NCBI RefSeq assembly: GCF_007748075.1 | Contig: NZ_CP036280.1 | Location: 90,001-122,000 of the forward strand | DNA: 32,000 bases | Direction of reading: 5' to 3' | Source of the DNA: Mucisphaera calidilacus | GTDB taxonomy: Bacteria > Planctomycetota > Phycisphaerae > Phycisphaerales > Phycisphaeraceae | In this document: one piece after another, positions 10,305-25,457 of the stretch | Layout of the letters: each line of letters starts with the position of its first letter | How positions within the stretch are numbered: position 1 is the stretch's first letter | Position numbers and translations under genes: made by a program | The notes under the pieces: generated by a model | What the model was told of the DNA's origin: nothing | What the model saw: the letters and a program-made list of their open reading frames with translations, nothing else | Database searches by the model: none

Positions 10305-12449
10305 ATGCGACTTGCACAGCGTTTCGGATTACTCATCGGATTGGCGACCGGTTTTTCAGTGTTGAGTCTGGTCGTTTTCACCGGCCTGCTGTTCTACAAC
10401 CTGACCGGATCGATTACGTCTGCGATCGAAGAGGACGGCCAGAGCAGCCTGACCGCGGTGATCGAGACGATGGGAACGGTCTGCTCGACGCAGGACGAAC
10501 TGCTGCGCGTGAAGATCAACAACGACCTGAACGTCGCTCGTGACCGCATGGTCTCGGCGGGCGGCGCGTCGCTATCGGACCAGACCGAGACGTGGGACAT
10601 CGTGAATCAGTTCACGAAGGCCGGGTCGACGGTCGAACTGCCCAGGCTCAGCGTCGGCGACACCTGGCTGGGCAAGATCAGCTCGCTGGAGGCGTCGGCC
10701 CCGCTCGTGGACGAGGTCAAGGCACTCGTGGGCGGCACCTGCACGGTCTTCCAACGCGTCAACGAGGCGGGCGACATGCTCCGTGTCGCCACGAACGTCG
10801 CCAAACTCGACGGCACCCGCGCCATCGGCACCTACATCCCCGCGACCAATCCCGACGGCAAGCCCAACGGCGTGGTCGCGACGCTGCTCAGCGGCGAGAC
10901 CTTCCGCGGGCGGGCTTATGTCGTCAACGACTGGTACCTCACCGCCTACGAGCCGATCAAGGACGCGACCGGCGAGGTCGTCGGTGCCCTTTACGTCGGC
11001 GACAAGATCGAGAGCATCAACAGCATCCGCAACGCCATCGCGTCTTCGGTCGTCGGCCGGACGGGTGAGTCGTTCGTGGTGCTTGGCGACAAGTTCCTGA
11101 TCGCGCCGAGCTGGTCGTCCGACGGCAGCGACGCGGCCTCGGTGCTAGATGACCGTGGCGAGTCGCGCTACCAGGGCCTGCTCGAGACCGTCCGCGGCGA
11201 GGGCGGTGTTCAGATCGCCAAGGTCTACGACGAGCAGGGCAGCCCACGTCTGGTCGCGGCGATGCACTACGAGCCTTGGGACTGGGTGATCTTCTGCGAA
11301 CTTCCCGAGCAGGACATCATGGGCGCGGTGGCGTCGGTGGAATCGGCCGCGTCCGGCCTGGCCTTCTGGCTGCCGGTCATCGGCGTGAGCGTGGTGGTGA
11401 TCGCGGTGTTGATCGGCTACCTGTTCGCGGCCCGCTTCGCCCGGCCGGTGCAGCAGGTGGCCGCGACTCTCGCCGAGATCGCCGAGGGCGAGGGCGACCT
11501 GACCCGCCGTCTGCCCGTGGTCGGCGGCCCGGAAGAACGAGCGCTCGCCGGTGCTTTCAATAATTTCGCCAGCACGGTGCACGACATCCTCGTCGAGGTG
11601 CGTGGTCTGAGCGCGACGGTCGCGGGCGGCACCGCAGAGATCTCGTCAACGTCGAAGCAACTCGTTGACGACATGACCGAGCAGAGCAGGCTGATCGAGA
11701 GCACGTCGGCGGCGGTCGAGGAGCTGTCGCAGAGCGCCGACTCGGTCGCCGAACGCACCGAGCAGGCCGCATCGCTGGCCACCGAGGCGGGCGACGTCGC
11801 CCACGGCAGCGGCGAGACGCTCGGCAAGACCATCCGCAATCTCGAGACGATCCGTGACAGCGTGACCGCCGCGGCCGACGCCGTCGGCCTGCTGGGCCAA
11901 CGCGGCGCGCAGATCGGCGAGATCATCCAGGTCATCAACGACATCGCCGACCAGACCAACCTGCTCGCCCTCAACGCGGCCATCGAAGCGGCCCGGGCCG
12001 GCGAGCACGGGCGCGGCTTCGCGGTTGTGGCCGACGAGGTCCGCAAGCTCGCCGACCGGACGACCAAAGCGACCTCCCAGATCACCGAGTCCATCGAGGG
12101 CATGCAGTCCGAGACCGACACGTCGGTCGAGAAGATCAACCTCGGCAGCGAGCAGGCCAACGAGGGCGCCCGCGAGGCCGATCAGGCCCGAGGATCGCTC
12201 GAGAAGATTGTCGAATCGGCGTCGAGTGTCGGCACGCTGGTGACCGACATCGCGGCGGCGGCGAGCGAGCAGTCGCAGGCCTCTCGTGAGATCAGTTCGA
12301 GCGTCGAGACGATCTCGCGCACCTCCGTTCAGGCCCGGGAGTTCTCCGAGACGGTCTCGAATACCTCGGGTCACCTGGCCCAGAACGCCGAGACCCTGAG
12401 CACGCTGGTCGCCCGCTTCAAGCTCGACGAGCGCAAGCGCTCCGGCTGA
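10305..12449 (+). CDS. Methyl-accepting chemotaxis protein with periplasmic Cache-type (Cache_3-Cache_2-like) sensor, HAMP and MA domains
   Basis: 714-aa ORF with GAGGAG 8 nt upstream of the ATG. TM1 is [23 protein letters not shown]. The ~300-aa sensor contains [20 protein letters not shown]...[10 protein letters not shown]...[38 protein letters not shown]2 is followed by a HAMP domain ([23 protein letters not shown]). The signalling hairpin is canonical: [38 protein letters not shown]. Confidence 0.9.
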
Positions 12450-12520: not shown

Positions 12521-13822
12521 TTACGAGGCGTAGCGGCGGATGATGAGCGTGTCGTTCTGCCCGCCGAAGCCGAAGGAGTTGCTCAGGCAGATGTTGACGT
12601 CGGTCCTGCGTGCCTCGTTGGGGACGTAGTCGAGGTCGCACTCGGGGTCGGGGTTGTGGAGGTTGATGGTGGGGGGCAGGACCTGGTCGCGGAGGGCGAG
12701 GACGCAGACGATGGCCTCGGTGGAGCCGGCGGCGGCGATGAGGTGGCCGAGCATGCTCTTGATGGAGCTGATGGGCACGTCCGGAGCGCGGTCGCCGAAC
12801 ACGGCCTTGACCGCCTTCGACTCGATGACGTCGTTCTCCTTGGTCGAGGTGCCGTGGGCCGAGATGTAGTCGATCTGATCGGTGGTGACGCCCGCGTTGC
12901 GCAGGGCGAGGCGCATGGCCTGCGCGGCGCCACGCCCGTCGGGATGAATGTCGGTGATGCGGTAGGCGTCGGCGGTGGAGCCGTAGCCGGCGATCTCGGC
13001 GAGGATCTCGGCGCCGCGTGCCCGGGCGTGTTCCTCGGTTTCGAGGATGAGGATGCCGCTGCCCTCGCCGATGACAAAGCCGTCGCGGTCACGGGAGAAG
13101 GGTCGCGATGCGGTGGCGGGGTCGTCGTTGCGGTTGGAGAGGGCGGTGAGCCGGTTGAAGCCCGTGACGCCGAGCGGGTGGATCATGGTGTGTGCGCCGC
13201 CGGTGATCATCACGTCGGCGTCGCCATGGCGGAGGATGTGCATCGCCTCGCCGATCGCCTGGGTCGATGCGGCGCAGGCGGTCAGGCAGTTGTAGGCCGG
13301 CCCGCGGGCGTCGAACTCCATGGCGAGGTGGGCGAGCGGCATGTTGGGCTCCTGCTCGATCTCGCCGTCGGGCGTGAGCAGCCTGCGTGCCGCCTCGATC
13401 CACTTGACGCCGTCCACCGCGCTCGCGTCGGCCTGCCAGCCGGCGAGGTTGGCCTCGACGTAGTGGTCGAAGTCGATCAGCCCCTCGCCCGAGCCGAGGT
13501 AGATGCCCAGGCGGTCGTGATCGAGTTTGCCCTGCTCGTCGTAGGCGTCGAGCTTCGCCGATCGCCAGGCCATGGTCGCGGCGCCGAGCGCGTAGCCCAC
13601 GTTACGTCCGGTGTTGGCGTGTGCCTCGGGGTGCTTGACGAACTCGTTGTGGTCGAAGTCGGTGACCTCCGCGGCGATGGAGGTGGGGTAGGTGGAGGCG
13701 TCAAACTGCTGGATGGGCCCGATGCCGCAGTCGCCCTGAATAAGGCGTTGCCAGACGCGCTCGATGTCGTGCCCGAGCGGCGTGACCCATCCGATGCCTG
13801 TAACGACGATCTTGTCGGCCAT
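12521..13822 (-). CDS. Beta-ketoacyl-ACP synthase (KAS II/FabF-like, catalytically complete)
   Basis: 433-aa ORF. Cys-His-His triad present: GPAYNCLTACAASTQAIGEA (Cys183, codon 13274-13276), ISAHGTSTKEND (His323), KSMLGHLIAAAG (His360), and the C-terminal NSFGFGGQN. It carries an extra ~30-aa segment (LIDFDHYVEANLAGWQADASAVDGVKWIEAARRLL) relative to what I recall of housekeeping FabF. Confidence 0.85.
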   Translation of the reverse strand: MADKIVVTGIGWVTPLGHDIERVWQRLIQGDCGIGPIQQFDASTYPTSIAAEVTDFDHNEFVKHPEAHANTGRNVGYALGAATMAWRSAKLDAYDEQGKLDHDRLGIYLGSGEGLIDFDHYVEANLAGWQADASAVDGVKWIEAARRLLTPDGEIEQEPNMPLAHLAMEFDARGPAYNCLTACAASTQAIGEAMHILRHGDADVMITGGAHTMIHPLGVTGFNRLTALSNRNDDPATASRPFSRDRDGFVIGEGSGILILETEEHARARGAEILAEIAGYGSTADAYRITDIHPDGRGAAQAMRLALRNAGVTTDQIDYISAHGTSTKENDVIESKAVKAVFGDRAPDVPISSIKSMLGHLIAAAGSTEAIVCVLALRDQVLPPTINLHNPDPECDLDYVPNEARRTDVNICLSNSFGFGGQNDTLIIRRYAS

Positions 13823-13843
13823 GGAGTTGCGTTCCGGTGGAGT

Positions 13844-15163
13844 TCAGGAGGCTTGACTGAGGACGATCGCGGCGTTCTGGCCGCCGACGCTCGACCCGCA
13901 CACGAGCGCGTGGCGGAGCGGCGTTTCCCGGGCCGGCGCGTTGCCTGAGATGCCCGGGAGGGGGTTGTTGCGGTTGACGATGGCGGGCACCTTCTGGTGC
14001 GCGAGCGCCACGGCGGCGATGGCGAGGTCGATGGCCCCGCTGCCGGCGAAGCACTCGCCCAGCAGCGCCTTGTGGCCGAGCACCGGCAGCCGCGCGAGAC
14101 GATCGCCAAAGACACGCCGAAGGGCCTCGGCCTCGGCCTGATCGAAAGCGGGCGTGCCGCAGGCACCGGGGACGATCAGGTCGATGTCATCCGCCACCAG
14201 GCCGGCGTCGGCGAGCGCGCGTTCGATGGCTCGCCGGTTGGCGCTGCCCCCGGGGTGCGGCTCGCGGTTGTGCTTGGCAGGATGCACCGTCTGCGAGGCG
14301 GCGAACCCGGTGATCCGCGCGTAGGCCGGTTTGTCGGTGCGCTGTTTGTAGTCGTCCTCGGCTTCGAGGATCAGGATCGCCCCGCCCTCGCCGACCACGG
14401 TGCCGGTCGCGTCGCGGTCCATCGGCCGGACGACCTCGTCGGGCGGCGTGCTGGAGGCGTCGGTCGTGAGCCTGAGATATTCCTGCCGGAGCATGCCCAG
14501 CGGGTTCACGCGTGACTCGGCCCCGCCGCAGAAGCACAGGTCGGCGTCGTCACGCTGGATCACCCTCAGCGACTCGCCCACGCTCAGCAGGCCGCTGGCC
14601 TGCGAGCAGGTGATGGTGTTCGACGGCCCGTGGGTGTCGTGGATGATCGTGACGTGGCAGGCGAGCATGTTGGGCAGGTACTTGAGCAGCCAGAGCGGGG
14701 TCAGCCGCTGCATCCCCTCGCGGCCCCACTGGTGCATGTCGAAGGTGCCCCCGTCGTCCACCGACTCGGCCATGGCCATGGTCAGCTCGTTGACGTCGGC
14801 GGCGATCAGGCCGGCGCCGATGTGCGCACCCATCCGGGCCGAGGCGTAGGAGCGCTCGTCCCCCTCGGCGGTGCCCTTGGTCTGGAGCCCCGCGTCGCGG
14901 GCGGCCAGGTCGGCGCAGGCGACGGCGAACTCGATGTCCCGTGCCATGACCTTGGTGGCCTTGCGGTAGGTCTTGGGCACAAAGTTGCGGACGCTGAAGT
15001 CGCTGACCTCCGCGCCGTAGGGGCACTTGAAGTCGGAGGCGTCGAAGGCGGAGACGGGCGCGATCGCCGAGGCCCCGGCGCAGGCCTGCTCCCAGAGTGC
15101 GTCGATGCCGAGGCCCAGCCCGCAAACCGGGCCGAGTCCGCTGATGACCACGGGTCGTGTCAT
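13844..15163 (-). CDS. Ketosynthase-fold protein lacking the catalytic triad (chain-length-factor / KS-beta-like partner)
   Basis: 439-aa ORF, 21 nt upstream of the KS gene on the same strand. An ungapped alignment is anchored on the shared GP...GE...DAD: GPSNTITCSQASGLLSVGESLRVIQRDDADL versus GPAYNCLTACAASTQAIGEAMHILRHGDADV. This puts Gln188 (codon 14600-14602, CAG) at the nucleophile Cys position. IVPGACGTPAFD versus ISAHGTSTKEND gives His to Gly. KALLGECFAGSG versus KSMLGHLIAAAG gives His to Glu. The C-terminal GSSVGGQN is retained. Confidence 0.75.
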   Translation of the reverse strand: MTRPVVISGLGPVCGLGLGIDALWEQACAGASAIAPVSAFDASDFKCPYGAEVSDFSVRNFVPKTYRKATKVMARDIEFAVACADLAARDAGLQTKGTAEGDERSYASARMGAHIGAGLIAADVNELTMAMAESVDDGGTFDMHQWGREGMQRLTPLWLLKYLPNMLACHVTIIHDTHGPSNTITCSQASGLLSVGESLRVIQRDDADLCFCGGAESRVNPLGMLRQEYLRLTTDASSTPPDEVVRPMDRDATGTVVGEGGAILILEAEDDYKQRTDKPAYARITGFAASQTVHPAKHNREPHPGGSANRRAIERALADAGLVADDIDLIVPGACGTPAFDQAEAEALRRVFGDRLARLPVLGHKALLGECFAGSGAIDLAIAAVALAHQKVPAIVNRNNPLPGISGNAPARETPLRHALVCGSSVGGQNAAIVLSQAS

Positions 15164-15329: not shown

Positions 15330-16478
15330 ATGCCGCAATCACCTCTTCGCACCCCCTGGGTCTCGGTCCTGACGCTGGCCCTGTCGCTGGGCATCACCGG
15401 CTGCCAGTCGGATTCGGGATCGTCCGACTCGATCGATGCCGCGCCCGCCGAGACGACGGAGGTCGCTGCCACGCAACCCGCCGAACCGTCGCGCGAGCAG
15501 AAGGTCGTCGAGGGCCGGCTGGGCATGCTGATGGAGGAGATCGAGCTGTGCGAGCAGCTCGGCCTGGACCCCGTCGAGATCGCGGCGCTCAACAAGCGTC
15601 CGCTCTACACCTTCAACGAGACCGAGGTGCACCGCTACCTGCAGTTCCTCCACGCGACGCAGCCCGACCTGCGCACCCGCGTCAAGACGCTCGCCCGCAA
15701 GAACCTCGGCCAGCCCTACGAGATCTACCTCCTCGGCGAGGCGCCGTTCGAGACCTACGACCCCCAGCCGCTCTACTGCCTGGACCGCAGCGACTGCGTG
15801 GTCTACGTCGAGCACATGCTCGCCATGGGCCTCGGCAGCGACTGGCCCAAGTTCTTCGGGCTGCTCCAGCGCATCCGGTACAACAGCGGGCAGATCGGCC
15901 TGGCGACCCGCAACCACTACTCCGAGGCCGACTGGGCGCCCAACAACAGCTGGCTCGTGACCGACATCTCCGAGCAGGTAGCGGGCGATGGCGTCGCCAC
16001 CTACCCCATGAAGGTCGACCGCGCGAGAATGCTCAAGCGCGTCGGCGGGCTCGAAGTGGCTATCCCGGTTGAGAGCCGTGTCGAGAGCTACGTGCCCTTC
16101 GAGGAAACCGTGCGTGCGCTGCCCGAGCTCCAGACAGGCGACCTCGCCTTCATCGTGCGCGGCACCGGACCCGAGAGCCTCTGGGTCGGGCACATGACCA
16201 TGGTCATCCGCACCGAGAACGACGCCATCCACCTGATCCACTCCACCCCGCCCGTGGTCAAGGAGGAGCCGATCACCGAGTACATCCGCCGATCGGTCGC
16301 CCAGATCCCCGACCGCGAGGCGGCGGGCAAGTCACGTTTCTACGGCTTCAAGTTCATGCGTCTCAACGAGGACGCGCTGGATCGGCTGGTGGAACTCGAC
16401 GGCCCCGACGCGCCGGTGCTCTCGCTGCCCTCGGGCGCCCGCCTGCAGATGTCCCCGCAGGCGAAGATCGCCCGCTGA
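15330..16478 (+). CDS. Lipoprotein, DUF1460-like (AmiA-like amidase / cysteine-peptidase-like fold)
   Basis: 382-aa ORF with GGAAGGA 7 nt upstream. Lipobox LSLGITGC (Cys25). Motifs resemble DUF1460 as I recall it: LGQPYEIYLLGE, LYCLDRSDCVVYVEHMLAMGL, LLQRIRYNSGQIGLATRNHYSEADW, GDLAFIVRG...LWVGHMTMVI. The family call is made from memory of the profile, not from a search. Confidence 0.6.
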   Translation: MPQSPLRTPWVSVLTLALSLGITGCQSDSGSSDSIDAAPAETTEVAATQPAEPSREQKVVEGRLGMLMEEIELCEQLGLDPVEIAALNKRPLYTFNETEVHRYLQFLHATQPDLRTRVKTLARKNLGQPYEIYLLGEAPFETYDPQPLYCLDRSDCVVYVEHMLAMGLGSDWPKFFGLLQRIRYNSGQIGLATRNHYSEADWAPNNSWLVTDISEQVAGDGVATYPMKVDRARMLKRVGGLEVAIPVESRVESYVPFEETVRALPELQTGDLAFIVRGTGPESLWVGHMTMVIRTENDAIHLIHSTPPVVKEEPITEYIRRSVAQIPDREAAGKSRFYGFKFMRLNEDALDRLVELDGPDAPVLSLPSGARLQMSPQAKIAR

Positions 16479-16479
16479 G

Positions 16480-17304
16480 TCAGCGCTGGCCCGCGTCGCC
16501 GAAGCCGTTCCAGTAGCCGTTGTCGAGGGCCTCGTCGTTGTCGAAGTCGTCGAGTGAGACGGCGGAGACCGATTCGGCGTGGCCGTCGGCGAAGGTGAAC
16601 TCGCTGGTGCTGCCGCCGCGGTCAACAGGCGTCGAACGCGTGTTGGCGTAGTAGCCCGAGGGCTTGCCGCTGCCACGCTCCGAGGGGAGCGGCGGGTCAA
16701 TGACATACTGACCCTCGGTGCCGCCGTCGGCACCCTCCGTGTCGCCGATCACCACGGTCTGCGAGGCCGCGTAGACCGTCTCGACAGCCCGGCGGAACTC
16801 AACGCCGTTGCGGGCGTTGCCCAGGTACTGATAGTTGTAGCCATAGCCGCCCCAGCGGTTGTAATCGGCGTCGGGGTCGCCCTGACCGGAGTAGTCGCGC
16901 TGGGGGTTCTGGGCCGCCTTGAGAGCATCGACGTTGCTTGCCTCGTGCCACCACGTCTTGGCGAGGATCGATTCGTCGATGTCGATGTGCGGGTTGATGA
17001 AGACGTCCGTGCTCTGGATGTAGGGGTAGAGGTAGTCGGCCCAGCGCGGCTTGGCGCCGTTGGCGGGCCGGTTGCTGCTGGGGATCGTCGACGAGTGCCA
17101 GGGGAAGCGGCCGTCCTGCTCCACGAGGAAGCTGGTGAGGGCGATTGACCCGATCTGGCGGGTGTTGGAGAGGCTCTGGGCGTCCTTGGCGAGGGTCCGG
17201 GCGCTGCCGAGGGCCGGCAGGAGGATGCCGATGAGCAGGGCGATGATCGAGATCACGACAAGCAGTTCGATCAGGGTGAAGGCGCGGTTGCGGGCTGCGG
17301 GCAT
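16480..17304 (-). CDS. Prepilin-type N-terminal cleavage/methylation domain protein (pseudopilin, H-X9-DG / DUF1559-like)
   Basis: An internal ATG at 17302-17304, with GGAAAGGA upstream, gives MPAARNRA|FTLIELLVVISIIALLIGILLPAL, the class III signal plus hydrophobic helix. The C-terminal FTFADGHAESV matches the H-X9-DG idiom. The track start at 17391 is TTG and adds 29 implausible residues. Confidence 0.8.
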   Translation of the reverse strand: MPAARNRAFTLIELLVVISIIALLIGILLPALGSARTLAKDAQSLSNTRQIGSIALTSFLVEQDGRFPWHSSTIPSSNRPANGAKPRWADYLYPYIQSTDVFINPHIDIDESILAKTWWHEASNVDALKAAQNPQRDYSGQGDPDADYNRWGGYGYNYQYLGNARNGVEFRRAVETVYAASQTVVIGDTEGADGGTEGQYVIDPPLPSERGSGKPSGYYANTRSTPVDRGGSTSEFTFADGHAESVSAVSLDDFDNDEALDNGYWNGFGDAGQR

Positions 17305-17362
17305 GGTTGGGTCCTTTCCGCGTGGGGGTAAATAACTGAGAATCAATCTCAGGAAGATCGAG

Positions 17363-17391
17363 AGCATAGGGATACTGAGAGTCAGTTGCAA
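17363..17391 (-). promoter_or_regulatory. Candidate sigma70-like promoter for the pseudopilin gene
   Basis: On the minus strand, TTGCAA (17386-17391), a 17-nt spacer and TATGCT (17363-17368) lie ~58 nt upstream of the ATG at 17304 in a locally AT-richer stretch. This is a motif match only, and promoter consensus in this lineage is not established. Confidence 0.25.
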
Positions 17392-17476
17392 ATTAGATTT
17401 ACGGGTAAACCCCTAGGCGCCCTTGGGGCGGGCACCCCGGACCCTGAATCCGGCCCGAATCCCCTAGCATGCGTCC

Positions 17477-18316
17477 ATGCTCACCCACCGCATCATCCCC
17501 TGCCTCGATGTGAAGTCCGGGCGTGTCGTCAAAGGCGTCAACTTCGTCGACCTCGTCGACGCGGGCGACCCGGTCCAGATCGCCCGCGCTTACGACGAGC
17601 AGGGAGCCGACGAACTCGTCTTTCTCGATATCACCGCCAGCCACGAGGGCCGCGGGATCATCCACGACGTCGTCCGGCAGGTCGCCGAGCAGTGCTTCAT
17701 GCCCTTTACCGTCGGCGGGGGCATCCGCACCATTGACGACGTGACCGCGCTCATCCAGGCCGGTGCCGAGAAGGTGAGTATCAACACCGCCGCCGTCGTG
17801 ACGCCGGAGATCGTGAGCCAGACCGCCCGACGCTTCGGCACCTGCGCGACCGTCGTCAACATCGACCCCAAACGCGTGCCCATCGACGATTACCTCAGCC
17901 GAGCGGGTAAGGACGCCCCGGTCACCGAGTCGACCGAGCGGCCCGGGACCTGTTTCGAAGTGCACACCCATGGCGGGCGCACGCCCGTCGGGCTGGATGC
18001 GTTGGACTGGGCCCAACGCGTCGTCGAACTCGGCGCCGGCGAGATCGTCCTGACCTCGATGGATGGCGACGGCACCCAGACCGGTTATGACATCGAGATC
18101 ACCCGGCTGGTCGCTCAGGCCGTGAGCGTGCCCGTGGTCGCCTCAGGGGGCGCGGGGAGTCCCGAGCACATCGCCGACGTGCTCGAGGAGGGCTGTGCCG
18201 ATGCGGCTTTGGCCGCGAGCATCTTCCACTTCGGGACCTACACGATCGCCGAGACCAAGGAATATCTGGCCCGGCGCGGCCTGCCGGTGCGTACAGTCGT
18301 TCCCCTCGCCTCTTGA
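17477..18316 (+). CDS. hisF: Imidazole glycerol phosphate synthase, cyclase subunit
   Basis: 279-aa ORF: [110 protein letters not shown] ~15-aa insertion precedes FEVHTHGGR. Confidence 0.92.
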
Positions 18317-18437
18317 CCATCCGGCTGGATCGGGGGAGGATGACAGGTCCGTAACCGGGCAGGGATGCCGCGGCTTTCAGGATCAACCGGATGATCCGTT
18401 CCTGCGCGAGCGCAATCCGTCGTTTCGAGGCCAGTCT

Positions 18438-19640
18438 GTGACCCAATCGTCCCCGCATTCCAGTTCGAGTGGCAGCTCCCACGGCACCTCCTTCGGCACG
18501 TCCTTCGGCGACCCGGTGCCCGTCGACCACGTCGACCAGAAGCGTTCGCTCAGCGACACGCCGCTCAAGAAGTTTTTCAAGGCGGCGATCCAGTTCGAGT
18601 CGTCCGACGTCATCATGCGCGCCGGTCAGGTCCCCAAGCTGCGCGTCAAGGGGGCGCTCAAGGCACTTGACCACCCGGCGATCCCCGAGACCCAGTTCGA
18701 ACGCTGGGTCGAGCAGGGCCTCTCCGAGGCGCAGTTCCAGTACTACGCCGAGCACGGCTCGATCGACCTCGGCATCGACGTCGAGACAGGCGGCAAGGCC
18801 CACCGCTTCCGCGTCAACGTCTTCCGGACCCGCGGACGCTCCGCCATCGCCGCACGCCGCGTCAGCGCCGAGATCCTCGATTTCTCCCAGCTCCACCTCC
18901 CCCCGGTGATGGAGAAGATCTGCCAGGTCCATCAGGGCCTCGTGCTGCTCTGCGGCGTCACCGGCTCGGGCAAGTCGACCACCATCGCCTCGATGCTCGA
19001 CCACATCGCCCAGGAACGCTACTGCCACATCCTCACGATCGAAGACCCCATCGAGTACATCTTCGCCGACGAAGACCGCAAGGCCTCGATCAACCAGCGT
19101 GAGGTCGGCATCGACGTGCCCGACTTCCCGTATGCCCTGCGTGCCATGGTTCGCGAGAACCCCGACGTCGTGCTCATCGGCGAGATGCGTGACCGCGAGA
19201 CGTTCGAGGCAGCGCTCCAGGCCGCCGAGACCGGCCACCTCGTCTTCGGCACGATCCACGCGTCGTCCGCGACCCAGGCCTTCGGGCGTATCTACGACCT
19301 CTTCCCGCAGGAAGAGCGTGAGGCGATTCGCGGCCTGCTCGCCTTCCAGCTCCAGGCGTTCGTCTACCAGAAGCTGCTGCCGACGATTAAGCCAGAGATG
19401 CAGCGCGTCCCCGCCGTCGAGATCCTGCTCCAGACCCCGCCCGTGCGCAAGTACATCCTTGAGGGACGCGAGGACGAGTTGCAGGAGGTCATCAAGGACA
19501 GCCGCGAGGACGGCATGCAGACCTTCACCGACAGCCTTGTTGACCTGGTGGAGACCAATTACATTCACCCCCGCGTGGCGCAGAGTGCAGCGCCATCGGC
19601 CGAGGAGCTCAAGATGCGGCTCCGCGGCATCACGAACTGA
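18438..19640 (+). CDS. pilT: PilT/PilU-family type IV pilus retraction-type ATPase (catalytic motifs intact)
   Basis: Walker A LLCGVTGSGKSTT, Asp box ILTIEDPIEY, Walker B DVVLIGEMRDRET, His box TGHLVFGTIHASS, C-terminal PVRKYILEGRE...GMQTF. The track start at 18195 (GTG) overlaps hisF by 122 nt. The first canonical in-frame start after the hisF stop is GTG 18438-18440, with GAGG 7 nt upstream. That start gives 400 aa with a Ser/Gly-rich N-terminal extension (SSPHSSSSGSSHGTSFGTSFG). The start is uncertain. Confidence 0.85.
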   Translation: MTQSSPHSSSSGSSHGTSFGTSFGDPVPVDHVDQKRSLSDTPLKKFFKAAIQFESSDVIMRAGQVPKLRVKGALKALDHPAIPETQFERWVEQGLSEAQFQYYAEHGSIDLGIDVETGGKAHRFRVNVFRTRGRSAIAARRVSAEILDFSQLHLPPVMEKICQVHQGLVLLCGVTGSGKSTTIASMLDHIAQERYCHILTIEDPIEYIFADEDRKASINQREVGIDVPDFPYALRAMVRENPDVVLIGEMRDRETFEAALQAAETGHLVFGTIHASSATQAFGRIYDLFPQEEREAIRGLLAFQLQAFVYQKLLPTIKPEMQRVPAVEILLQTPPVRKYILEGREDELQEVIKDSREDGMQTFTDSLVDLVETNYIHPRVAQSAAPSAEELKMRLRGITN

Positions 19641-19706
19641 CCGCGTTTTTCCCTACGGACCCACGAAGCCCGCACCCGGGCTTGCAGGACCCAACCCGAG
19701 AGAAGC

Positions 19707-21347
19707 ATGACCCCCGCGACGCTGGCCCAGGCCGAGACCGTCTTCCTGCTGAGTTGGTTCAAACCCATTGTGGTGCTCGCCGTGCTGATCGGCTGGGCAC
19801 GCATGGTCTCGACCTTCGACAAGGACCTCGAATACTTCCACCTCCCGCGGATGCTCTGGAACGGCGGGCACATGCTCGCGGCGGTCGCCGGCTTCGGGGC
19901 GATCTTCCTGATCCCCATCTTCTTCGTCGGCCTGCCCATCGGCCTGCTGCTGATGTTCGGATCGCTCTACGCCTACGCCAACTTCCGCAACCACCGCGTC
20001 CCCTTCGACGCACGCTGGGACCTCTCCTTCAACGGCCTCAAGGAGCAGATCACCGCCTGGCAGAAGGATCAGGCCGAGAAGCACGCCAGCCTCCGCATCG
20101 AGGGCAGCGACGGCGAGCACCTGCAGGTGCCCGTCGGCAACGACCCCCAGGTCGAGAGCCACGCCGTCCTCGCCGAGGTCCTCAACTTCGCCATCCCCCG
20201 CAACGCCGACCGCATCGAGATGACCATCGACAAGGAACTGGGCAAGGTCACCGCCCGGGTCGACGGCGTGCTCTACCCCCAGCCCGACATCGAGTCCAAG
20301 AAGGCGATGGGCGTGCTCGAGTACGTCAAGGGCGCCGCCGGCATGGACCTCTCCAGCCACCGCAAACGCGAGCAGGGGCGTCTGGGCGTCGACCTCGGCG
20401 AGTTCGGCACCCACCGCCTGGCCCTCGAAACGGCCGGGTCGACACGCGGCGTGCGCATGATCATGGACGTCAACCCCGCCAAGCAGACCAACATCCCCCT
20501 CAACCAGATCGGCCTCACCGAGACCCAGCACGACCAGATCCTCAAACTCGTCTCTGAGCCCGGCGGGACCGTCCTCATCTCCGCGCCGCCCCAGCAGGGC
20601 CTGACCACCACGCTCTACAGCATCCTGCAGGCCCACGACCCCTACACCTCCAGCGTCATCACCGTCGAAAGGCAGAAGCCCTTCGAGGTTGAGGGCGTCA
20701 ACCACCAGGAGTTCGGCGACGAGGCCTCACCCGACAAGATCAACGAGCGGCTCAAGGTGCTCCTGCGCTCCGACCCCAACGTCCTCATGATCAGCGAGGT
20801 CTTCGACGACAGCACGCCCAAGCTCATGGCACCGCTCGCCGAGGAGTGCCGTTTCTACGTCCCCATGAAGGCCGACAGCGGGTTCGAGGCGGCCAAGCGC
20901 TGGATGCGCATGGTCGGCGACCCCAAGCTCGCCACCGCCAACATCACCGCCGTGCTCCACCAGCGCCTCGTGCGCCGCCTGTGCAGCACCTGCCGGACCG
21001 CCTACAAGCCCGACCCCGCGGCTCTCAAGAAGCTCAACATCCCCGCCGACAAGGTCGACAAGCTCTACCAGGCCTCCGGACAGGTCGAGGTCAAGGGCAA
21101 GGCACGGACCTGCCCCGCCTGCATGGGCATCGGCTACCGCGGACGCATCGGCGTCTTCGAACTCATGATCTACGACGACACCGCCCGCTCGCTGCTGCGG
21201 CAGGGCGACTTCGACAACCTGCGCACCCACCTCCGCAAGCAGAAACTGCAGTACCTCCAGGAAGCGGCCCTCGCCAAGGTCGTCAGCGGAGAGACGGACA
21301 TCAAGGAAATCACGCGGGTACTGGGCGGATCCAAGACCGCCTCCTGA
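19707..21347 (+). CDS. Membrane-anchored GspE/PilB-family paralogue with degenerate nucleotide-binding motifs (predicted pseudo-ATPase)
   Basis: 546-aa ORF. Residues ~11-93 form three hydrophobic helices: TVFLLSWFKPIVVLAVLIGWARMV, GGHMLAAVAGFGAIFLIPIFFV, GLPIGLLLMFGSLYAYANF. The N2-like domain is present: NADRIEMTIDKELGKVTARVDGVLYP...REQGRLGV. At the Walker A position the sequence reads ISAPPQQGLTTTLYS (nt 20583-20612) instead of GPTGSGKTTTLY. The Asp box reads ITVERQKPFE, the Walker B region DPNVLMISEVFD, and the His-box region ECRFYVPMKADS. The tetracysteine motif is retained: CSTC...CPACMGIGYRGRIGVFE (nt 20982-21122). Confidence 0.75.
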   Translation: MTPATLAQAETVFLLSWFKPIVVLAVLIGWARMVSTFDKDLEYFHLPRMLWNGGHMLAAVAGFGAIFLIPIFFVGLPIGLLLMFGSLYAYANFRNHRVPFDARWDLSFNGLKEQITAWQKDQAEKHASLRIEGSDGEHLQVPVGNDPQVESHAVLAEVLNFAIPRNADRIEMTIDKELGKVTARVDGVLYPQPDIESKKAMGVLEYVKGAAGMDLSSHRKREQGRLGVDLGEFGTHRLALETAGSTRGVRMIMDVNPAKQTNIPLNQIGLTETQHDQILKLVSEPGGTVLISAPPQQGLTTTLYSILQAHDPYTSSVITVERQKPFEVEGVNHQEFGDEASPDKINERLKVLLRSDPNVLMISEVFDDSTPKLMAPLAEECRFYVPMKADSGFEAAKRWMRMVGDPKLATANITAVLHQRLVRRLCSTCRTAYKPDPAALKKLNIPADKVDKLYQASGQVEVKGKARTCPACMGIGYRGRIGVFELMIYDDTARSLLRQGDFDNLRTHLRKQKLQYLQEAALAKVVSGETDIKEITRVLGGSKTAS

Positions 21348-21372
21348 CACCCGACCGGCCGGAGCCAGCCCC

Positions 21373-23046
21373 ATGTATGTGAGTATCGCTGTCATCCTTT
21401 ACCTGCTGCTGATGGCCACCCTGTGGTCTACTCAGGGGCTCTTCTCGGCCTTCATCCACCTCGTGATCGTGCTGGTCGCCGGGACCATCGCCTTCTCGCT
21501 GTGGGAACCGATCTCCGTGGGCCTGATCATGCCCTGGCTGCCCCACATGGCCTGGTCGCTCGGCCTGCTCATCCCCTTCGCGGTCCTGCTCATCGGTCTG
21601 CGCACCATGGCCGACACCGTCGTGCCCAGCAACATCCGCTTGCCCGGCATGGTCAACACGATCCTTGGCGGCATGCTTGGCGTCATTTCCGGCTGGCTCA
21701 CCGCGGGTATCGCCATCATCGGTTTCGGCTTCATGCCCCTCTCCGCCGACCTCTTCGGCTACCAGCCCTACGTCATCAACGCCGACGGAACCACCAGCGC
21801 CAACAGCGACCTCTGGGTCGAAGTCGACACATTGACCAACGACGTCTTCCAGATGCTCTCCAACGGCGCAATGGCCTCGGCCACGCCCATGGCGGTCTAC
21901 CAGCCCGACCTCCGCGAGCAGAGCAGCGTCGTCCGCCTGAAGCTCGACGAGTACGCCTCCATGGTCGCCGGCCCCGAGGCCGTCACCGTCGAGAACGTCG
22001 TGGTGCAGGACCTCCCGACCGAGGAACTGCCCGCCGCGTCCCTGCAGGCCCTGCCCGTGCTCGCCGAGGGCGATCAGCAACTGGTCATCGTCGATCTCAA
22101 GATCGTCAAGAGCAAGGGCACGTTCGACGGCGACTCGACGCTCCGCCTGCCACCGACCCACGTGCGCCTGCTCGCCGGCCCGCCCGGACAGTCGGACTAC
22201 GTCCCCCCGATCGCCTTCTCACGCCTGACCGACCCGAGGACCGGCGAACGCGTTCTCGTCCCGATCGACAACGACCGCGTCTCCGCCGACGGCGCTCAGC
22301 AGGAGCAGGTCATCGCCTGGGCCTTCGTGATCCCCGCGCGGGACGAGGCCCGCTTCATCATGGTCCGCAACATCCGCCTGCCGCTGAACAACTCCGAGGC
22401 CGACGCGGTCCAGGCCGCCTCCCTGCTGGGCATGCCCGAGAACCCCGAACCCGAGGTGACCGAACCCGCCGGCCCGCAGACCGTCACGGAGGCGGGCGAC
22501 CGCCAGGGCATCCGCACCGGGCACGTCGCCGACCTGGGCGAAGTCACCGCCAGCCTGCCCCGACCCATCAGCCGAAACGCGGCCACCGGGCTCGACGTCC
22601 GACGCGTCGACGAGGAGTACATGATCTTCTCGGGCAACGGCAGCGTGAAGAAGCCCCAAGGCGTCCAGCTCTCGCGACGCACCCGCGTCACCAGCTTCTA
22701 CGTGCCCGACCACATGGGCATGGTCCGCGTCCGTCTCGACGACGACGGCGCCAGCTCGCTCCTCGGACGCGCCCGCGCCTCCGCCGCGTCGCTGCAGGGC
22801 ATCTGGCTCGTCGACGACCGTGGCACGCAGTGGTTCCCCCACGCCTACGTCCTCAGCTCAGGCGACGGCACCCAGAACATCAAGTGCGACCCCGAGGTCA
22901 ACATCCGCTCGGCACGCGAGCTGCCCCTCAACGAGCTCGGCGACGACGACGAACTCTACCTCTACTTCCAGGTCCCCAAGGGCACGGAGATCGTCGAGTA
23001 CCACGTTGGCCGAACCATCCAGGACCTGCGCCTGAACGTCGAGTGA
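21373..23046 (+). CDS. Polytopic membrane protein with CvpA-like N-terminal domain and ~430-aa C-terminal soluble region
   Basis: 557-aa ORF, 25 nt after the preceding gene, with GGAG upstream. There are four hydrophobic helices, and the pre-TM4 motif RLPGMVNTILGGMLGVISGWLTAGIAI is comparable to E. coli CvpA SGTDRVLGVCFGALRGVLIVAAIL. The C-terminal region has no motif I recognise with certainty. Confidence 0.55.
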   Translation: MYVSIAVILYLLLMATLWSTQGLFSAFIHLVIVLVAGTIAFSLWEPISVGLIMPWLPHMAWSLGLLIPFAVLLIGLRTMADTVVPSNIRLPGMVNTILGGMLGVISGWLTAGIAIIGFGFMPLSADLFGYQPYVINADGTTSANSDLWVEVDTLTNDVFQMLSNGAMASATPMAVYQPDLREQSSVVRLKLDEYASMVAGPEAVTVENVVVQDLPTEELPAASLQALPVLAEGDQQLVIVDLKIVKSKGTFDGDSTLRLPPTHVRLLAGPPGQSDYVPPIAFSRLTDPRTGERVLVPIDNDRVSADGAQQEQVIAWAFVIPARDEARFIMVRNIRLPLNNSEADAVQAASLLGMPENPEPEVTEPAGPQTVTEAGDRQGIRTGHVADLGEVTASLPRPISRNAATGLDVRRVDEEYMIFSGNGSVKKPQGVQLSRRTRVTSFYVPDHMGMVRVRLDDDGASSLLGRARASAASLQGIWLVDDRGTQWFPHAYVLSSGDGTQNIKCDPEVNIRSARELPLNELGDDDELYLYFQVPKGTEIVEYHVGRTIQDLRLNVE

Positions 23047-23053
23047 TGCCGAC

Positions 23054-24400
23054 GTGAACCGAACGCCTACCCCCTTGTCACGGCGACGCGTCACCGTCAT
23101 GGGACTCGGTCGTTTCGGCGGCGGCGTCGGCGTCACGCGCTTCCTCGCCGAACACGACGCCCGCATCCTCCTCACCGACACCCTTGATCAAGACCGGCTC
23201 GGCCCGAGCCTCGATTCCCTCCGCGACCTCATCGACGACGGCCGCATCGAGCTGCGCCTGGGCGAACACCGCGAAGACGATTTTACGTCCGCCGACCTCG
23301 TCGTCGTCAACCCCGCCGTCAACCCCGCGACCAACGCCTACACCCGTGCCGCCTCGAACGCCGGCGTCCCGCTGACCTCCGAGATCCGGCTGCTCATCGA
23401 ACGCCTGCCCACGCCTCACGTACTCGGCATCACCGGCAGCGCCGGCAAGTCGACCACAACCGTCATGCTCCATCACGCACTCGTCGACGCGCTCGGCGAC
23501 GAACGCGTCTGGCTCGGCGGGAACCTCGGCGGATCGCTGCTCATGGACCTGCCCCGCATCCAGCCCGACCACCGCGTTGTTCTCGAACTCTCCTCCTTCA
23601 TGCTCGACGGCCTCCGCCACGACCGCTGGTCGCCCCGCGTCGCCGTCGTCACCAACCTGCACCCCAATCACCTCGACTGGCACGGCAGCTTCGAGCACTA
23701 CGCCGACAGCAAGCAGCAGATCCTCGAACACCAGCAACCCCACGACGCCGCCGTCCTCGGCAGCTCGTGCGCCGACCGGCTTCGCCCGCGCACGCCGCGT
23801 GTGGTCTGGTCCGACACCTCGTGGGTCGAATCGCAGTGGCTGCCGCCACTCCGCGTCCTTGGCGAGCACAACCGCGCCAATGCCCGGCTTGCCATCGAGG
23901 CCGCCGGCCAGACCGGCTTCGACCGCAACGCCGCCGCCGCGTCACTCGCCACCTTCAACGGGCTGCCGCACCGACTGCGTGTCATCGGTGAGCGCGAGGG
24001 CGTGCGCTTCGTTGACGACTCCAAGTCCACCACGCCCGAGGCCGCGATCCTCGCCATCGACGCCTGCCGATCCGACTTCCCCGACGCTCGTCTGCACGTG
24101 ATCCTCGGCGGATACGACAAGGGCGCCGACCTCGCCCCGCTCGCCCGCCACGCCGCCGCGCACACCCACGCCATCTACGCCATCGGCCAGACCGGGCCCT
24201 CCATCCTCGATGCGGCACAGGGTCAGGATGCCGAGTGCGTCGACGCCCAAACCGTCGCTGACGCCGTCACCCATGCGCTGGGGCACACTACGCCGGGTGA
24301 CGTTGTTTTACTCTCGCCGGGTTGCGCTTCGTGGGATCAGTTCACCAACTACGAGCAACGCGGCAGGGCCTTTGCCGAGGCCGCCGGCTGCGCGCAGTAA
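23054..24400 (+). CDS. murD: UDP-N-acetylmuramoyl-L-alanine--D-glutamate ligase
   Basis: 448-aa ORF with a GTG start 7 nt after the previous stop. Motifs: VTVMGLGRFGGGVGVTRFL, LGITGSAGKSTT, GGNLGGSLL, VLELSSFML, TNLHPNHLDWHGSFEHYADSK, GEHNRANA, FNGLPHRLRVIGE..VRFVDDSKSTTPEA, ILGGYDKG, LLSPGCASWDQFTNYEQRGRAF. Confidence 0.9.
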   Translation: MNRTPTPLSRRRVTVMGLGRFGGGVGVTRFLAEHDARILLTDTLDQDRLGPSLDSLRDLIDDGRIELRLGEHREDDFTSADLVVVNPAVNPATNAYTRAASNAGVPLTSEIRLLIERLPTPHVLGITGSAGKSTTTVMLHHALVDALGDERVWLGGNLGGSLLMDLPRIQPDHRVVLELSSFMLDGLRHDRWSPRVAVVTNLHPNHLDWHGSFEHYADSKQQILEHQQPHDAAVLGSSCADRLRPRTPRVVWSDTSWVESQWLPPLRVLGEHNRANARLAIEAAGQTGFDRNAAAASLATFNGLPHRLRVIGEREGVRFVDDSKSTTPEAAILAIDACRSDFPDARLHVILGGYDKGADLAPLARHAAAHTHAIYAIGQTGPSILDAAQGQDAECVDAQTVADAVTHALGHTTPGDVVLLSPGCASWDQFTNYEQRGRAFAEAAGCAQ

Positions 24401-24423
24401 AAAACCCCGATAACGCATCGGGG
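24399..24423 (-). terminator. Intrinsic-terminator-like hairpin with U-tract on the minus strand, abutting the murD stop (possibly bidirectional)
   Basis: CCCCGA (24405-24410) pairs with TCGGGG (24418-24423) across a 7-nt loop. The plus-strand A6 at 24399-24404 reads as T6 immediately 3' of the hairpin on the minus strand. On the plus strand no T-tract follows. Confidence 0.4.
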
Positions 24424-24539
24424 CTCGGAGGAGAGAATCACGATGTCCACTATGAGTACGCAAAGCGGCAGGGCGGGTTCACGATTCGGGATCGTTTCTC
24501 GATCTTTTTTTTGCCCATCTTCACAGCCGCTGAGCGCAT

Positions 24540-24570
24540 AAAAAAGCGCCCCCGCCGCAAGGACGAGGGC
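24540..24570 (-). terminator. Candidate intrinsic terminator of htpX
   Basis: The minus strand reads GCCCTCG-tccttgcgg-CGGGGGC, a 7-bp stem including one G.U pair, followed by GC TTTTTT. It lies 39-69 nt downstream of the htpX stop at 24609-24611. Confidence 0.4.
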
Positions 24571-24608
24571 ACCTGGAGAAGGGAAGAGGGGAGGAAGATC
24601 ACTGAGGC

Positions 24609-25457
24609 TTACGTGCCGCTGTACCACGACGGTTCGAGATTCCGCAGCGCCTCAATGCGTTTTTCTGTTTTCGGGTGCGTCGAGAAGAGACCCGCCACGC
24701 CCTCGCCCGACAACGGCTGGACGATGAACATATGGTTCTGCGTCGATGACGAACCTTCGAGGGGGATGCGTTGGGAATAAGCCTGAAGCTTCTGCAGCGC
24801 GCCGACCAGGCCGTTCGGCGTGCCCGCGATCCGGGCCGCGTCGGCATCCGCCACAAACTCACGGCTGCGGCTGATCGCCATCTGGATCAGCGCCGCCGCG
24901 ATCGGGGCACCGATGATCATCGCCAGCATGATGAGCGGATGGACGTCCCTGCGGCCGCCGCCAAACAGGATCAGCCACTGTGCCGCGTTGAGCGTGCCCG
25001 CAATCACCGCCGCCACCGTGCTGATCAGCGTGTCGCGGTTTTTGACGTGTGCGAGTTCGTGCGCCAGCACGCCCTCCAACTCGCCGTAGTCGAGTAATTG
25101 AATCGCTCCCTCGGTCACCGCCACCGCGGCGTTGCTGGGGTTGCGGCCCGTCGCGAACGCGTTCGGCGCCTGCTGTGGGCAGACATAAACACGGGGCATC
25201 GGCAGGTTGGCGTTCTTCGCCAGCCGCTCGACCATCGTGACCAGCTCGGGATGGTTCTCCTCAGCGGGGACGCCACGCATCGTCGAGATCGCGATCTTGT
25301 CCGAGTAGTAGTAGGAGATCACCGCGCCGAAGCCGCCGAACATCGCGGCGAACATCACGCCCTGCGGGCCGCCGAGCACGTAGCCCAAGGCGATGATCAG
25401 GCCGAACATCAGCCCCAGCAGGATCGCGGTCTTGGTCTGGTTCCACATAATCGTCAT
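24609..25457 (-). CDS. htpX: Zinc metalloprotease HtpX (peptidase M48)
   Basis: 282-aa ORF with two N-terminal TM helices, NAFATGRNPSNAAVAVTEG, the zinc motif LAHELAHVKNRD, two more TM helices, SRSREFVADADAARI, and the C-terminal FSTHPKTEKRIEAL. Confidence 0.9.
   Translation of the reverse strand: MTIMWNQTKTAILLGLMFGLIIALGYVLGGPQGVMFAAMFGGFGAVISYYYSDKIAISTMRGVPAEENHPELVTMVERLAKNANLPMPRVYVCPQQAPNAFATGRNPSNAAVAVTEGAIQLLDYGELEGVLAHELAHVKNRDTLISTVAAVIAGTLNAAQWLILFGGGRRDVHPLIMLAMIIGAPIAAALIQMAISRSREFVADADAARIAGTPNGLVGALQKLQAYSQRIPLEGSSSTQNHMFIVQPLSGEGVAGLFSTHPKTEKRIEALRNLEPSWYSGT

Follow-up and report, generated by a model that had tools for sequence, protein, structure and literature searches.

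What does a secretion-type ATPase do once its active site is gone and its body has been fused to the membrane? The question is raised by one gene, hereafter gene X, in a stretch of 32,000 nucleotides (nt) from the planctomycete Mucisphaera calidilacus (RefSeq assembly GCF_007748075.1, contig NZ_CP036280.1, positions 90,001 to 122,000 of the forward strand; hereafter the window, in which all positions below are counted from the first letter), with a G+C content of about 66% throughout. Mucisphaera calidilacus is a spherical, motile member of the Phycisphaerae that divides by binary fission, and this class, like other planctomycetes, is described as devoid of FtsZ (PMC8882080). An earlier note on this DNA, made from the letters and their translations, had described gene X as encoding a folded, selectively maintained, non-hydrolysing GspE/PilB relative tethered directly to the membrane. 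The product is 100% identical to the NCBI entry "GspE/PulE family protein [Mucisphaera calidilacus]" (P0001; here and below, P numbers designate proteins and L numbers genomic loci).

19707-21347, + strand: gene X, membrane-anchored GspE/PilB-like pseudo-ATPase, 546 amino acids (aa); a single open reading frame (ORF) starting at the first ATG after a stop codon

Throughout the class Phycisphaerae, gene X is kept beside the genes for an intact PilT motor and for a CvpA-like membrane protein. Our answer, which we hold with moderate confidence, is that its product is an ancient pseudo-ATPase that arose from the GspE/PilB branch and would serve as a non-catalytic membrane scaffold coupling PilT to the CvpA-like protein, and that it is probably part of an undescribed envelope machine.

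Fold and catalytic site of the gene X protein

The gene X protein is a folded homologue of secretion ATPases, with their N2D and CTD domains and a wrecked active site. The Pfam T2SSE profile (PF00437) matches aa 154-537 with 142.1 bits against a cut-off of 24.9 (E=2.3e-41; profile positions 11-370 of 370), and a HMMER comparison with all PDB sequences ranks GspE/EpsE first (GspE 4pht, E=1.8e-40), followed by PilF and PilB. An AlphaFold2 (AF2) model built on an alignment of 113 relatives has a mean predicted local distance difference test (pLDDT) score of 92.5 and a predicted template modelling (pTM) score of 0.79. Foldseek searches with this model confirm the fold, retrieving EpsE with E=5e-33 and PilB chains with template modelling (TM) scores of 0.84-0.86, a root-mean-square deviation of about 3.1-3.4 Å and 21-27% identity. 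The resemblance to solved PilT is weak (about 16% identity to PilT4 in Foldseek; E=6.6e-07 for PilT4 in HMMER). The NCBIfam equivalog models for functional GspE/PilB do not recognize the protein, which scores 172 bits against a cut-off of 630 for TIGR02533, 162 against 617 for NF007755 and 149 against 676 for TIGR02538. The regions and motifs of this part of the protein are as follows, the catalytic ones being delimited by HMMER alignment to solved GspE/EpsE.

20151-20501, + strand: N2D-like domain, aa 149-265, aligned to the EpsE N2 domain
20502-21326, + strand: CTD, with RecA-like core, zinc subdomain and C-terminal helices, aa 266-540 (Foldseek to PilB/EpsE and HMMER alignment)
20583-20606, + strand: degenerate Walker A, APPQQGLT for GPTGSGK[ST], aa 293-300
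20634-20654, + strand: family-specific motif HDPYTSS, aa 310-316, directly after the Walker A helix
20667-20687, + strand: degenerate Asp box, ERQKPFE for EDPxE, aa 321-327
20772-20807, + strand: degenerate Walker B, DPNVLMISEVFD for DPDhhhhGExRD, aa 356-367
20844-20879, + strand: degenerate His box, ECRFYVPMKADS, aa 380-391
20982-21122, + strand: tetracysteine zinc motif CxxC-X39-CxxC, aa 426-472 (C426, C429, C469 and C472 invariant in 113 sequences)

To follow each position across the family we used three sets of sequences. A word-indexed homologue search with the gene X protein yielded at least 120 full-length relatives of 40-76% identity, of which all those bearing an organism name belong to Phycisphaerae or Planctomycetota; 113 of them form the main alignment, 19 sequences a smaller one, and a further set holds 65 full-length representatives with 28-44% identity to the gene X protein. 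None of these approximately 180 full-length relatives (28-76% identity) holds the full catalytic set. In the N2D-like domain, D186, G187, K208 and R219 are invariant among the 113 sequences.

The strings quoted in the earlier note are all present in the translation where it had placed them, and our residue-by-residue alignment to GspE/EpsE reproduces its list of degenerate Asp box, Walker B and His box. Its claim that the Walker A motif has been replaced also stands, with a corrected boundary: the segment that it ended at nt 20612 is 6 nt too short, since the alignment sets GPTGSGKSTTLY of canonical GspE/EpsE against APPQQGLTTTLY of the gene X protein over aa 293-304 (nt 20583-20618). The position of the Walker lysine (299) is occupied by T43/K15/G11/V9/L8 among the 113 close relatives, so that the lysine is missing in 98 of them, and it is missing in all 65 distant ones; where the loop should have glycines, it has two prolines and bulky residues that vary. 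The earlier note had named an intact P-loop at another place in the sequence as one of the findings that would contradict it; a scan of the whole protein for [AG]xxxxGK[ST] found none.

The other catalytic motifs have fared no better. At the Asp box, ERQKPF stands against the canonical EDPIEF; E321 is kept in 108/113 sequences, position 322 is D44/E36/K17 and the position of the second glutamate (325) holds A, L or P. At Walker B, SEVFD replaces GEIRD. The window protein (ISEVFD) has lost the glycine and retained the glutamate, which makes it one of the rare keepers of this residue, since the catalytic-Glu position (364) is R55/Q18/K17/H10/E6 in the 113 relatives and the preceding one (363) is S, T, E or D instead of G. 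The His box, TGHLVMSTLHTN in canonical members, reads ECRFYVPMKADS in the gene X protein and lacks the two histidines: the first is replaced by R382 in 113/113 sequences, with Y384 close by in 109/113, and the second (position 389) by A54/Q34. Both arginine-finger positions of the N2D have been lost in the family, position 225 being R in the window protein and K21/L17/S15/R13 in the 113 relatives, and position 239 being A in the window protein and D30/E24/Q11 in the relatives.

According to McCallum et al. (2017), PilT-like ATPases show complete conservation of the residues of Walker A, Walker B, Asp box, His box and arginine fingers (PMC5424180). Essentially all the residue classes on that list are lost across the gene X family, save one Asp-box glutamate (E321). 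To judge from the alignments, the gene X protein would therefore lack the residues needed for productive Mg-ATP binding and hydrolysis, and because the catalytic residues of PilT-like ATPases are missing family-wide, the non-hydrolysing nature proposed in the earlier note is strongly implied.

In contrast with the catalytic site, the segment QRLVRRLC, both CxxC pairs and GYRGRIGVFE are retained. The tetracysteine motif is found in GspE/PilB-type assembly ATPases and not in PilT-type retraction ATPases (PMC5061722, PMC5424180); its occurrence in the gene X protein, which points to a zinc-binding C_M subdomain, places this protein in the GspE/PilB branch. All four cysteines are present in 62 of the 65 distant representatives, none of which has the Walker lysine. 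The loop between the CxxC pairs is 10 residues longer than in EpsE (X39 versus X29) and strongly conserved, with the near-invariant motifs PDPxALKKxN and SGKVxVK, whereas in active EpsE zinc coordination is essential and the residues of this loop are interchangeable (PMC5061722). The HDPYTSS motif does not occur in canonical GspE in the HMMER alignment to solved structures; its D311 and Y313 are invariant and H310, P312 and T314 conserved at ≥90% in the 113 sequences, and S315 and S316 at ≥90% in the 19-sequence alignment. Further family-specific invariants are R354/D356/P357, R382/Y384 and W399.

Membrane anchor and conservation of the family

In GspE the N-terminal N1 domain binds GspL. No such domain is found in the gene X protein, in which homology to GspE starts at aa ~115 and residues 1-95 form transmembrane helices, in agreement with the replacement of N1 by three hydrophobic, membrane-tethering helices that the earlier note had described.

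19707-19754, + strand: short N-terminal tail or helix, predicted periplasmic, aa 1-16 (mean Lys plus Arg, K+R, 0.11; AF2 helix 3-12)
19755-19817, + strand: transmembrane helix 1, running from outside to inside, aa 17-37 (hydropathy; AF2 helix 18-43; K19, P20 and W30 conserved)
19818-19856, + strand: cytoplasmic loop with D38-K39-D40, aa 38-50 (K+R 2.82, as expected inside)
19857-19982, + strand: transmembrane helices 2 and 3, a hairpin, aa 51-92 (hydropathy; AF2 helices 48-68 and 72-95; P70, G75 and Y90 conserved)
19983-20150, + strand: juxtamembrane (Y)RNxxVPxxxxW segment and helical linker, aa 93-148, standing in for the GspE N1 domain

Kyte-Doolittle hydropathy peaks at aa 11-33 and along a 39-residue hydrophobic stretch at aa 53-91, with no hydrophobic segment past aa 110, and AF2 predicts helices at 18-43, 48-68 and 72-95 (pLDDT 91-96 for aa 21-100 and 75 for aa 11-20). 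The second and third helices are separated by an uncharged turn of 6 residues around P70/G75, predicted to be periplasmic. Mean K+R content in the 113 sequences is 0.11 for the N-terminus, 2.82 for the loop at aa 38-50, 0.01 for the turn and 2.75 after the third helix. This charge bias, read with the positive-inside rule, assigns the N-terminus to the outside and the C-terminal body to the inside, and fits a predicted topology of three spans with the N-terminus out, the DKD loop in, the turn out and the ATPase-like body in the cytoplasm. Signal-peptide-like extensions that precede the first transmembrane helix in P0098, P0100 and P0134 also fit a periplasmic N-terminus; in P0134 (727 aa), the approximately 190 extra N-terminal residues suggest that a periplasmic domain has been added to the pseudo-ATPase. 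We considered two spans instead of three. Three are favoured by the lack of charge in the 6-residue turn, by P70/G75, by the break between helices in the AF2 model, by an N-terminus poor in charge and by these extensions; two or three spans alike would keep the C-terminal body cytoplasmic.

The membrane region carries conserved landmarks (S16, K19, P20, W30, D38-K39-D40, P70, G75, Y90, R94-N95, V98-P99 and W104), several of them polar, and would therefore be more than a greasy anchor. Its best-conserved part is the DKD loop (pairwise identity 0.56), in which D40 is invariant and D38 conserved at ≥90% in the 113 sequences, and all three residues are invariant in the 19-sequence alignment. In the juxtamembrane segment, which is followed by an AF2 helix at 108-126, N95 and V98 are invariant in the 113 sequences and W104 is invariant in the 19 sequences and conserved at ≥90% in the 113. 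This architecture is characteristic of the family: when we scored 1.84 billion representative proteins with a profile of the first 148 residues, we obtained 496 hits, 192 of them at E≤1e-10, and among the best 150 of the 496 every full-length one has the same architecture of ~540-600 aa.

The protein is also selectively maintained, as had been proposed. The 113 relatives are free of frameshifts, ORF length is constant in the approximately 180 relatives down to 28% identity, and dozens of residues, including those of the new family-specific motifs, are invariant. We estimated pairwise ratios of nonsynonymous to synonymous substitution rates (dN/dS, NG86) for one pair, the window genes and their Mucisphaera sp. 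orthologues (75% amino acid identity for gene X); the values, 0.09 for pilT, 0.15 for hisF, 0.35 for gene X, 0.53 for murD and 0.63 for the cvpA-like gene, are to be read relative to neighbouring genes and not absolutely, dS being 0.5-0.7 in this GC-rich pair. Purifying selection thus acts on gene X. Read in the same way, its domains range from 0.23 to 0.44, with the zinc subdomain and C-terminal helices lowest (0.23) and the transmembrane region at 0.29. Mean pairwise identity among the 113 sequences is likewise highest in the zinc subdomain (aa 419-485, 0.67) and the C-terminal helices (0.64), against 0.46 for the N2D and CTD core and 0.30, the lowest value, for the linker. From these patterns, selection on the gene X protein appears to act on surfaces rather than on an active site. 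A recent pseudogene is rejected by the family-wide conservation and the dN/dS values; gene X represents a whole ancient family rather than a one-off case, and its catalytic loss is old.

The pilT, X and cvpA-like gene module and its possible role

Gene X lies between a pilT gene and a cvpA-like gene, with murD next in line, all four on the same strand. The gaps between them measure 66 nt (pilT-X), 25 nt (X-cvpA-like) and 7 nt (cvpA-like-murD).

18516-19640, + strand: pilT, PilT-family ATPase, starting at GTG 18516 (374 aa) or GTG 18438 (400 aa)
21373-23046, + strand: cvpA-like gene, 557 aa, with four transmembrane spans (aa 1-123) and a β-rich C-terminal part of ~430 aa (Pfam Colicin_V; four hydrophobic spans)
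23054-24400, + strand: murD, UDP-MurNAc-L-Ala:D-Glu ligase, starting 7 nt after the cvpA-like stop codon (assigned by synteny)
24486-24506, + strand: terminator-like hairpin with T-run, 86 nt past the murD stop codon, the first on this strand after pilT (consensus scan)

The consensus scan detected no other terminator-like site on the + strand within 17300-24485. A sigma-70 promoter scan of 17300-24700 found none, the sigma-70 consensus being uninformative for a planctomycete. PADLOC gave no defence-system match for gene X or the CvpA-like protein, and trivial P-loop hits only for PilT.

The neighbouring PilT has everything that the gene X protein lacks. It scores 374.5 bits with TIGR01420 (cut-off 319) and matches Aquifex PilT (2ewv) with E=2e-79, and its catalytic motifs GVTGSGKST, EDPIE, GEMRD and TGHLVFGTIH are intact when aligned to that structure. 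Its reading frame is open for approximately 107 codons upstream of the PilT homology (18195-18516), overlapping the end of hisF; GTG 18438 and GTG 18516 are the only starts that give the size of related PilT proteins (383-386 aa).

The CvpA-like protein belongs to a family of which Pfam Colicin_V matches 11/11 tested members (best E=4e-7), and its D81 and G99/G103/G107 are invariant. CvpA itself has a conserved Asp, three Gly, a GxxxG motif and a periplasmic C-terminus (bioRxiv 10.1101/2020.09.25.314492). Since D81 and the glycine pattern match CvpA, the C-terminal part of ~430 aa is most likely periplasmic. Word-indexed homologue searches returned 11 sequences with the single query and again 11 with a profile, hence the shallow alignment behind its AF2 model (pLDDT 71), which shows two β-sandwich-like domains; Foldseek found no match to this model in the PDB below E=1e-3. 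In one subgroup of Phycisphaerae the partner is ~100 residues longer (667-668 aa; L004, at 9654-11660, and L021, L026, L030, L048, L058 and L060), tblastn matches at these loci spanning the N-terminal third only; the single long protein that we aligned (P0297, 668 aa) carries its additional residues as an insertion behind the transmembrane core. By comparison of these sequences, the periplasmic part appears to evolve fast and in modules.

We examined synteny by look-ups of three homologues (L001, L002 and L004) and a scan of GTDB species genomes, from which we retained the 80 best gene X loci, covering ±7-8 kb of flank around each. All 80 belong to Phycisphaerae or Planctomycetota. The order pilT, X, cvpA-like, murD, on the same strand, recurs in nearly every locus with enough flank, over ranges of identity to the window proteins of 47-92% for PilT, 28-75% for X, 23-55% for the CvpA-like protein and 41-64% for MurD. 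PilT is encoded directly upstream of X in most loci with enough upstream flank, and a cvpA-like gene follows X in all but one of those with flank. Even where X is only 28-33% identical, PilT lies upstream (L074, L077, L078, L081 and L082) and a CvpA-like ORF downstream (L077, L081, L084 and L085), and the order pilT, X, cvpA-like as such is still seen with X at 28-30% identity. Pairwise evolutionary distances over 26 genomes are correlated within the trio PilT, X and CvpA-like (r 0.83-0.88; 0.88 for PilT versus CvpA-like and 0.83 for PilT versus X) more than between the trio and HisF or MurD (0.51-0.65), and partial correlations controlling for HisF/MurD remain at 0.71-0.80; these values are suggestive and carry no formal test, since the pairs are not independent and relatedness inflates r. 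From gene order and distances, the three genes appear to form a fixed partnership.

MurD homologues are encoded in L001, L002 and L004 (Pfam MurD-like_N, Mur_ligase_M and Mur_ligase_C). We had considered murD as a core component and down-weighted it, since in the deeply divergent loci it no longer adjoins the module, and since its distances follow those of the trio (r 0.56-0.65) no more closely than those of hisF do; it probably lies outside the core module and is linked to it at the family level only.

Neither in the window nor in the ~80 loci did we find a platform protein (GspF/PilC), other pilins, a prepilin peptidase or a secretin gene beside X. The window does contain a gene with a prepilin-type N-methylation motif (16480-17391, - strand), 2.3 kb upstream of X and on the opposite strand, next to a gene for an AmiA-like protein (N-acetylmuramoyl-L-alanine amidase-like; 15330-16478, + strand); neither is among the called genes of L001, L002 and L004. 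Planctomycetes encode type IV pilin-like proteins with this motif in large numbers.

These data lead us to propose the following role for the gene X protein. The soluble N1 docking domain of its ancestor would have been exchanged for three transmembrane helices, turning the protein into a membrane-fixed scaffold or adaptor, probably an oligomeric ring formed through N2D-CTD packing as in its relatives. This ring would keep the neighbouring PilT hexamer, which is fully competent, in place at the membrane and pass its ATP-driven movements to the four-pass CvpA-like protein and hence to the periplasm. The likeliest contact surfaces would be those that selection has kept tightest, namely the zinc subdomain with its family-specific loop, the C-terminal helices, the HDPYTSS loop and the transmembrane/DKD region. 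We infer from this arrangement that X touches both PilT and the CvpA-like protein.

Several observations weigh against this scheme. A GK[T] sequence is retained in 15/113 close relatives (P0053, P0054, P0060-P0063, P0065, P0072, P0075, P0077-P0079, P0081, P0082 and P0094; for example, SAPQQGKTTTLYS at Walker A), two of them matching [AG]x4GK[ST]. All 15 lack the Walker B glutamate, the His box and the arginine fingers, and their lysine may be an ancestral remnant or a reversion, with residual nucleotide binding possible. In the gene X protein itself, G298 and T300/T301 of the P-loop and E321 of the Asp box remain, leaving room for ATP binding. At one locus (L033, 7001-8617) X stands alone, with no PilT, CvpA-like or MurD gene within 7 kb, and in three others (L049, L063 and L071) PilT is not adjacent to it. 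The hisF, htpX, tauE and sucA genes are often found near X as well, so gene order may partly reflect a general regional synteny, and the relatedness that inflates the distance correlations has to be counted here too.

The alternative that survives best, which we nonetheless consider unlikely, is that X has the CvpA-like protein as its sole partner and acts in an envelope process as a membrane-bound scaffold or sensor, PilT being its neighbour through inherited gene order and not through direct functional coupling. The link between X and the cvpA-like gene is indeed the tightest, with its gap of 25 nt, and is kept in the three loci without adjacent PilT and in the most divergent ones (L084 and L085). 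However, in most loci by far, the five divergent ones listed above among them, PilT lies immediately upstream of X, and its distances track those of the CvpA-like protein and of X above those of HisF or MurD.

X and PilT could also assemble into one mixed hexamer, for instance with dead and live subunits alternating as in the α3β3 arrangement of F1-ATPase, X tethering the motor and setting its symmetry. The adjacency and common orientation of the two genes, the N2D+CTD architecture of the packing unit that both proteins share and the correlation of their distances would agree with this. We find it improbable nevertheless: X belongs with the GspE/PilB branch by its zinc subdomain and matches solved PilT weakly, its best-conserved surface is precisely this subdomain, which PilT does not have, and for PilT and PilU, which are closer paralogues of each other, homohexamers are reported (PMC6821130).

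Just as doubtful is a role as a ligand-controlled switch or regulator of PilT, in which X would bind a nucleotide or another phosphate-bearing ligand without hydrolysing it. Such a role could make use of the P-loop backbone (G298, T300 and T301) and E321, of the new invariant or conserved polar residues around the site (R382, H310, D311 and Y313) and, in the Lys-keeping subclade, of the GK[T]; but the lysine, both arginine fingers and both histidines are gone in most members, and two prolines and bulky residues sit at the glycine positions of the loop. That X is a decaying, functionless GspE remnant, as its destroyed catalytic motifs might suggest, has practically no chance of being right given the intact, constant-length ORF in ~180 relatives, the dozens of invariant residues, the high AF2 confidence and a dN/dS of 0.23-0.44 in each domain, below that of murD in the same pair.

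We thus return to a scaffold coupling PilT to the CvpA-like protein. A bolder form of this proposal, to which we assign a low probability, is that PilT, X and the CvpA-like protein constitute an unrecognized trans-membrane machine specific to Phycisphaerae, neither a pilus nor a secretion system, in which a live PilT ring seated on a dead, membrane-embedded GspE-like ring would power conformational changes of the CvpA-like protein, with its large periplasmic domain working on the envelope. The process served could be peptidoglycan growth or division, since the linkage to murD is tight at the family level and these bacteria divide by FtsZ-less binary fission (PMC8882080).

Other features were noted in the rest of the window. 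An exosortase (EpsH) fused to a DUF3485 region (2172-4253, - strand) lies beside a Wza-like export protein (Poly_export, SLBB; 4572-6065, - strand), and together they probably represent an exopolysaccharide or PEP-CTERM-type system, in keeping with reports that Mucisphaera calidilacus has a dense slime matrix. The protein of 908 aa encoded at 7366-10092 (- strand) may be a surface adhesin, as it combines an inverse-autotransporter β-domain with a right-handed β-helix region. Two tandem β-ketoacyl synthase genes (12521-15163, - strand), the second matching far more weakly (E=2e-25 versus 4e-44), resemble a ketosynthase/chain-length-factor-like pair. GC skew is strong in the window (about ±0.2) and changes sign at ~15-18 kb, where genes switch from mostly - to mostly + strand; on either side of the switch the coding strand is rich in C, and cumulative skew peaks at ~17-18 kb although the genes diverge there. 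This looks like a strand-composition effect of transcription direction rather than a simple origin/terminus signature.

Comparison with known systems

Relatives of gene X carry public annotations such as GspE, PilB and even "Flp pilus assembly complex ATPase". An automated reconstruction that relied on labels like "GspE/PulE family protein" or "general secretion pathway protein E" would infer a type II secretion system ATPase where there is none. Our full-text literature searches retrieved no description of a Walker-less or membrane-anchored GspE/PilB homologue, no link between PilT and CvpA and, with planctomycete pilus and cell-division genes included, no account of a pilT-X-cvpA-like module. 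What is new here is a secretion-ATPase offshoot turned pseudoenzyme, which combines a novel architecture with a novel and conserved set of gene partners. The GspE/PilB/PilT family has been treated as one of obligate enzymes, to which the gene X lineage makes a natural exception: its scaffold has a function apart from catalysis, the fold and zinc subdomain having been kept and a membrane fusion gained. It would offer a natural "dead ring" for the study of motor docking and force transmission, and the three-gene module gives a handle on the function of the CvpA family and on the unusual envelope and cell biology of the Phycisphaerae.

The closest known systems are GspE/EpsE and PilB/PilF, whose N2D and CTD are homologous to those of the gene X protein and which share with it the tetracysteine, QRLVRxLC and GYxGRxGxFE segments. 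They differ in possessing what the gene X family has lost, namely the Walker A Lys, the Walker B Gly-Glu, the His-box His and the arginine fingers, and in being encoded with pilC/gspF, pilins and secretin genes, which do not accompany gene X in the loci seen. In addition, GspE has its own GspL-binding N1 domain where the gene X protein has three transmembrane helices, and an interchangeable X29 zinc loop where the latter has a strongly conserved one of X39.

GspL and the PilM-PilN pair fill the same role as the anchor of gene X, tethering an ATPase-family body to the inner membrane, but as separate bitopic proteins that bind N1 instead of three fused helices. By analogy, the gene X protein may function as if an anchor of the GspL or PilM/N type had been covalently joined to the body of an inactive motor.

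PilT/PilU pairs likewise place two genes of the secretion-ATPase family side by side, one of them a bona fide PilT on which, if the analogy holds, the accessory ring would depend. Yet PilU is active, soluble and of the PilT branch, whereas the gene X protein belongs to the GspE/PilB branch, is membrane-integral and would be catalytically dead. Another parallel is FlaH/ArlH of the archaellum, a RecA-superfamily protein that hydrolyses ATP little or not at all and joins the motor ATPase FlaI at the membrane platform; both cases can be pictured as a non-catalytic, ATPase-like ring that modulates or anchors a live motor, although FlaH is KaiC-like, keeps its Walker A, binds ATP and is soluble.

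Finally, CvpA and the CvpA-like partner have in common a four-pass inner-membrane core, a conserved Asp, the GxxxGxxxG pattern and a periplasmic C-terminus of variable length. The Phycisphaerae protein differs in its predicted periplasmic extension of ~430 aa, with two β-sandwich-like domains that match no PDB fold, and in its linkage to PilT and X, which is not reported for CvpA.

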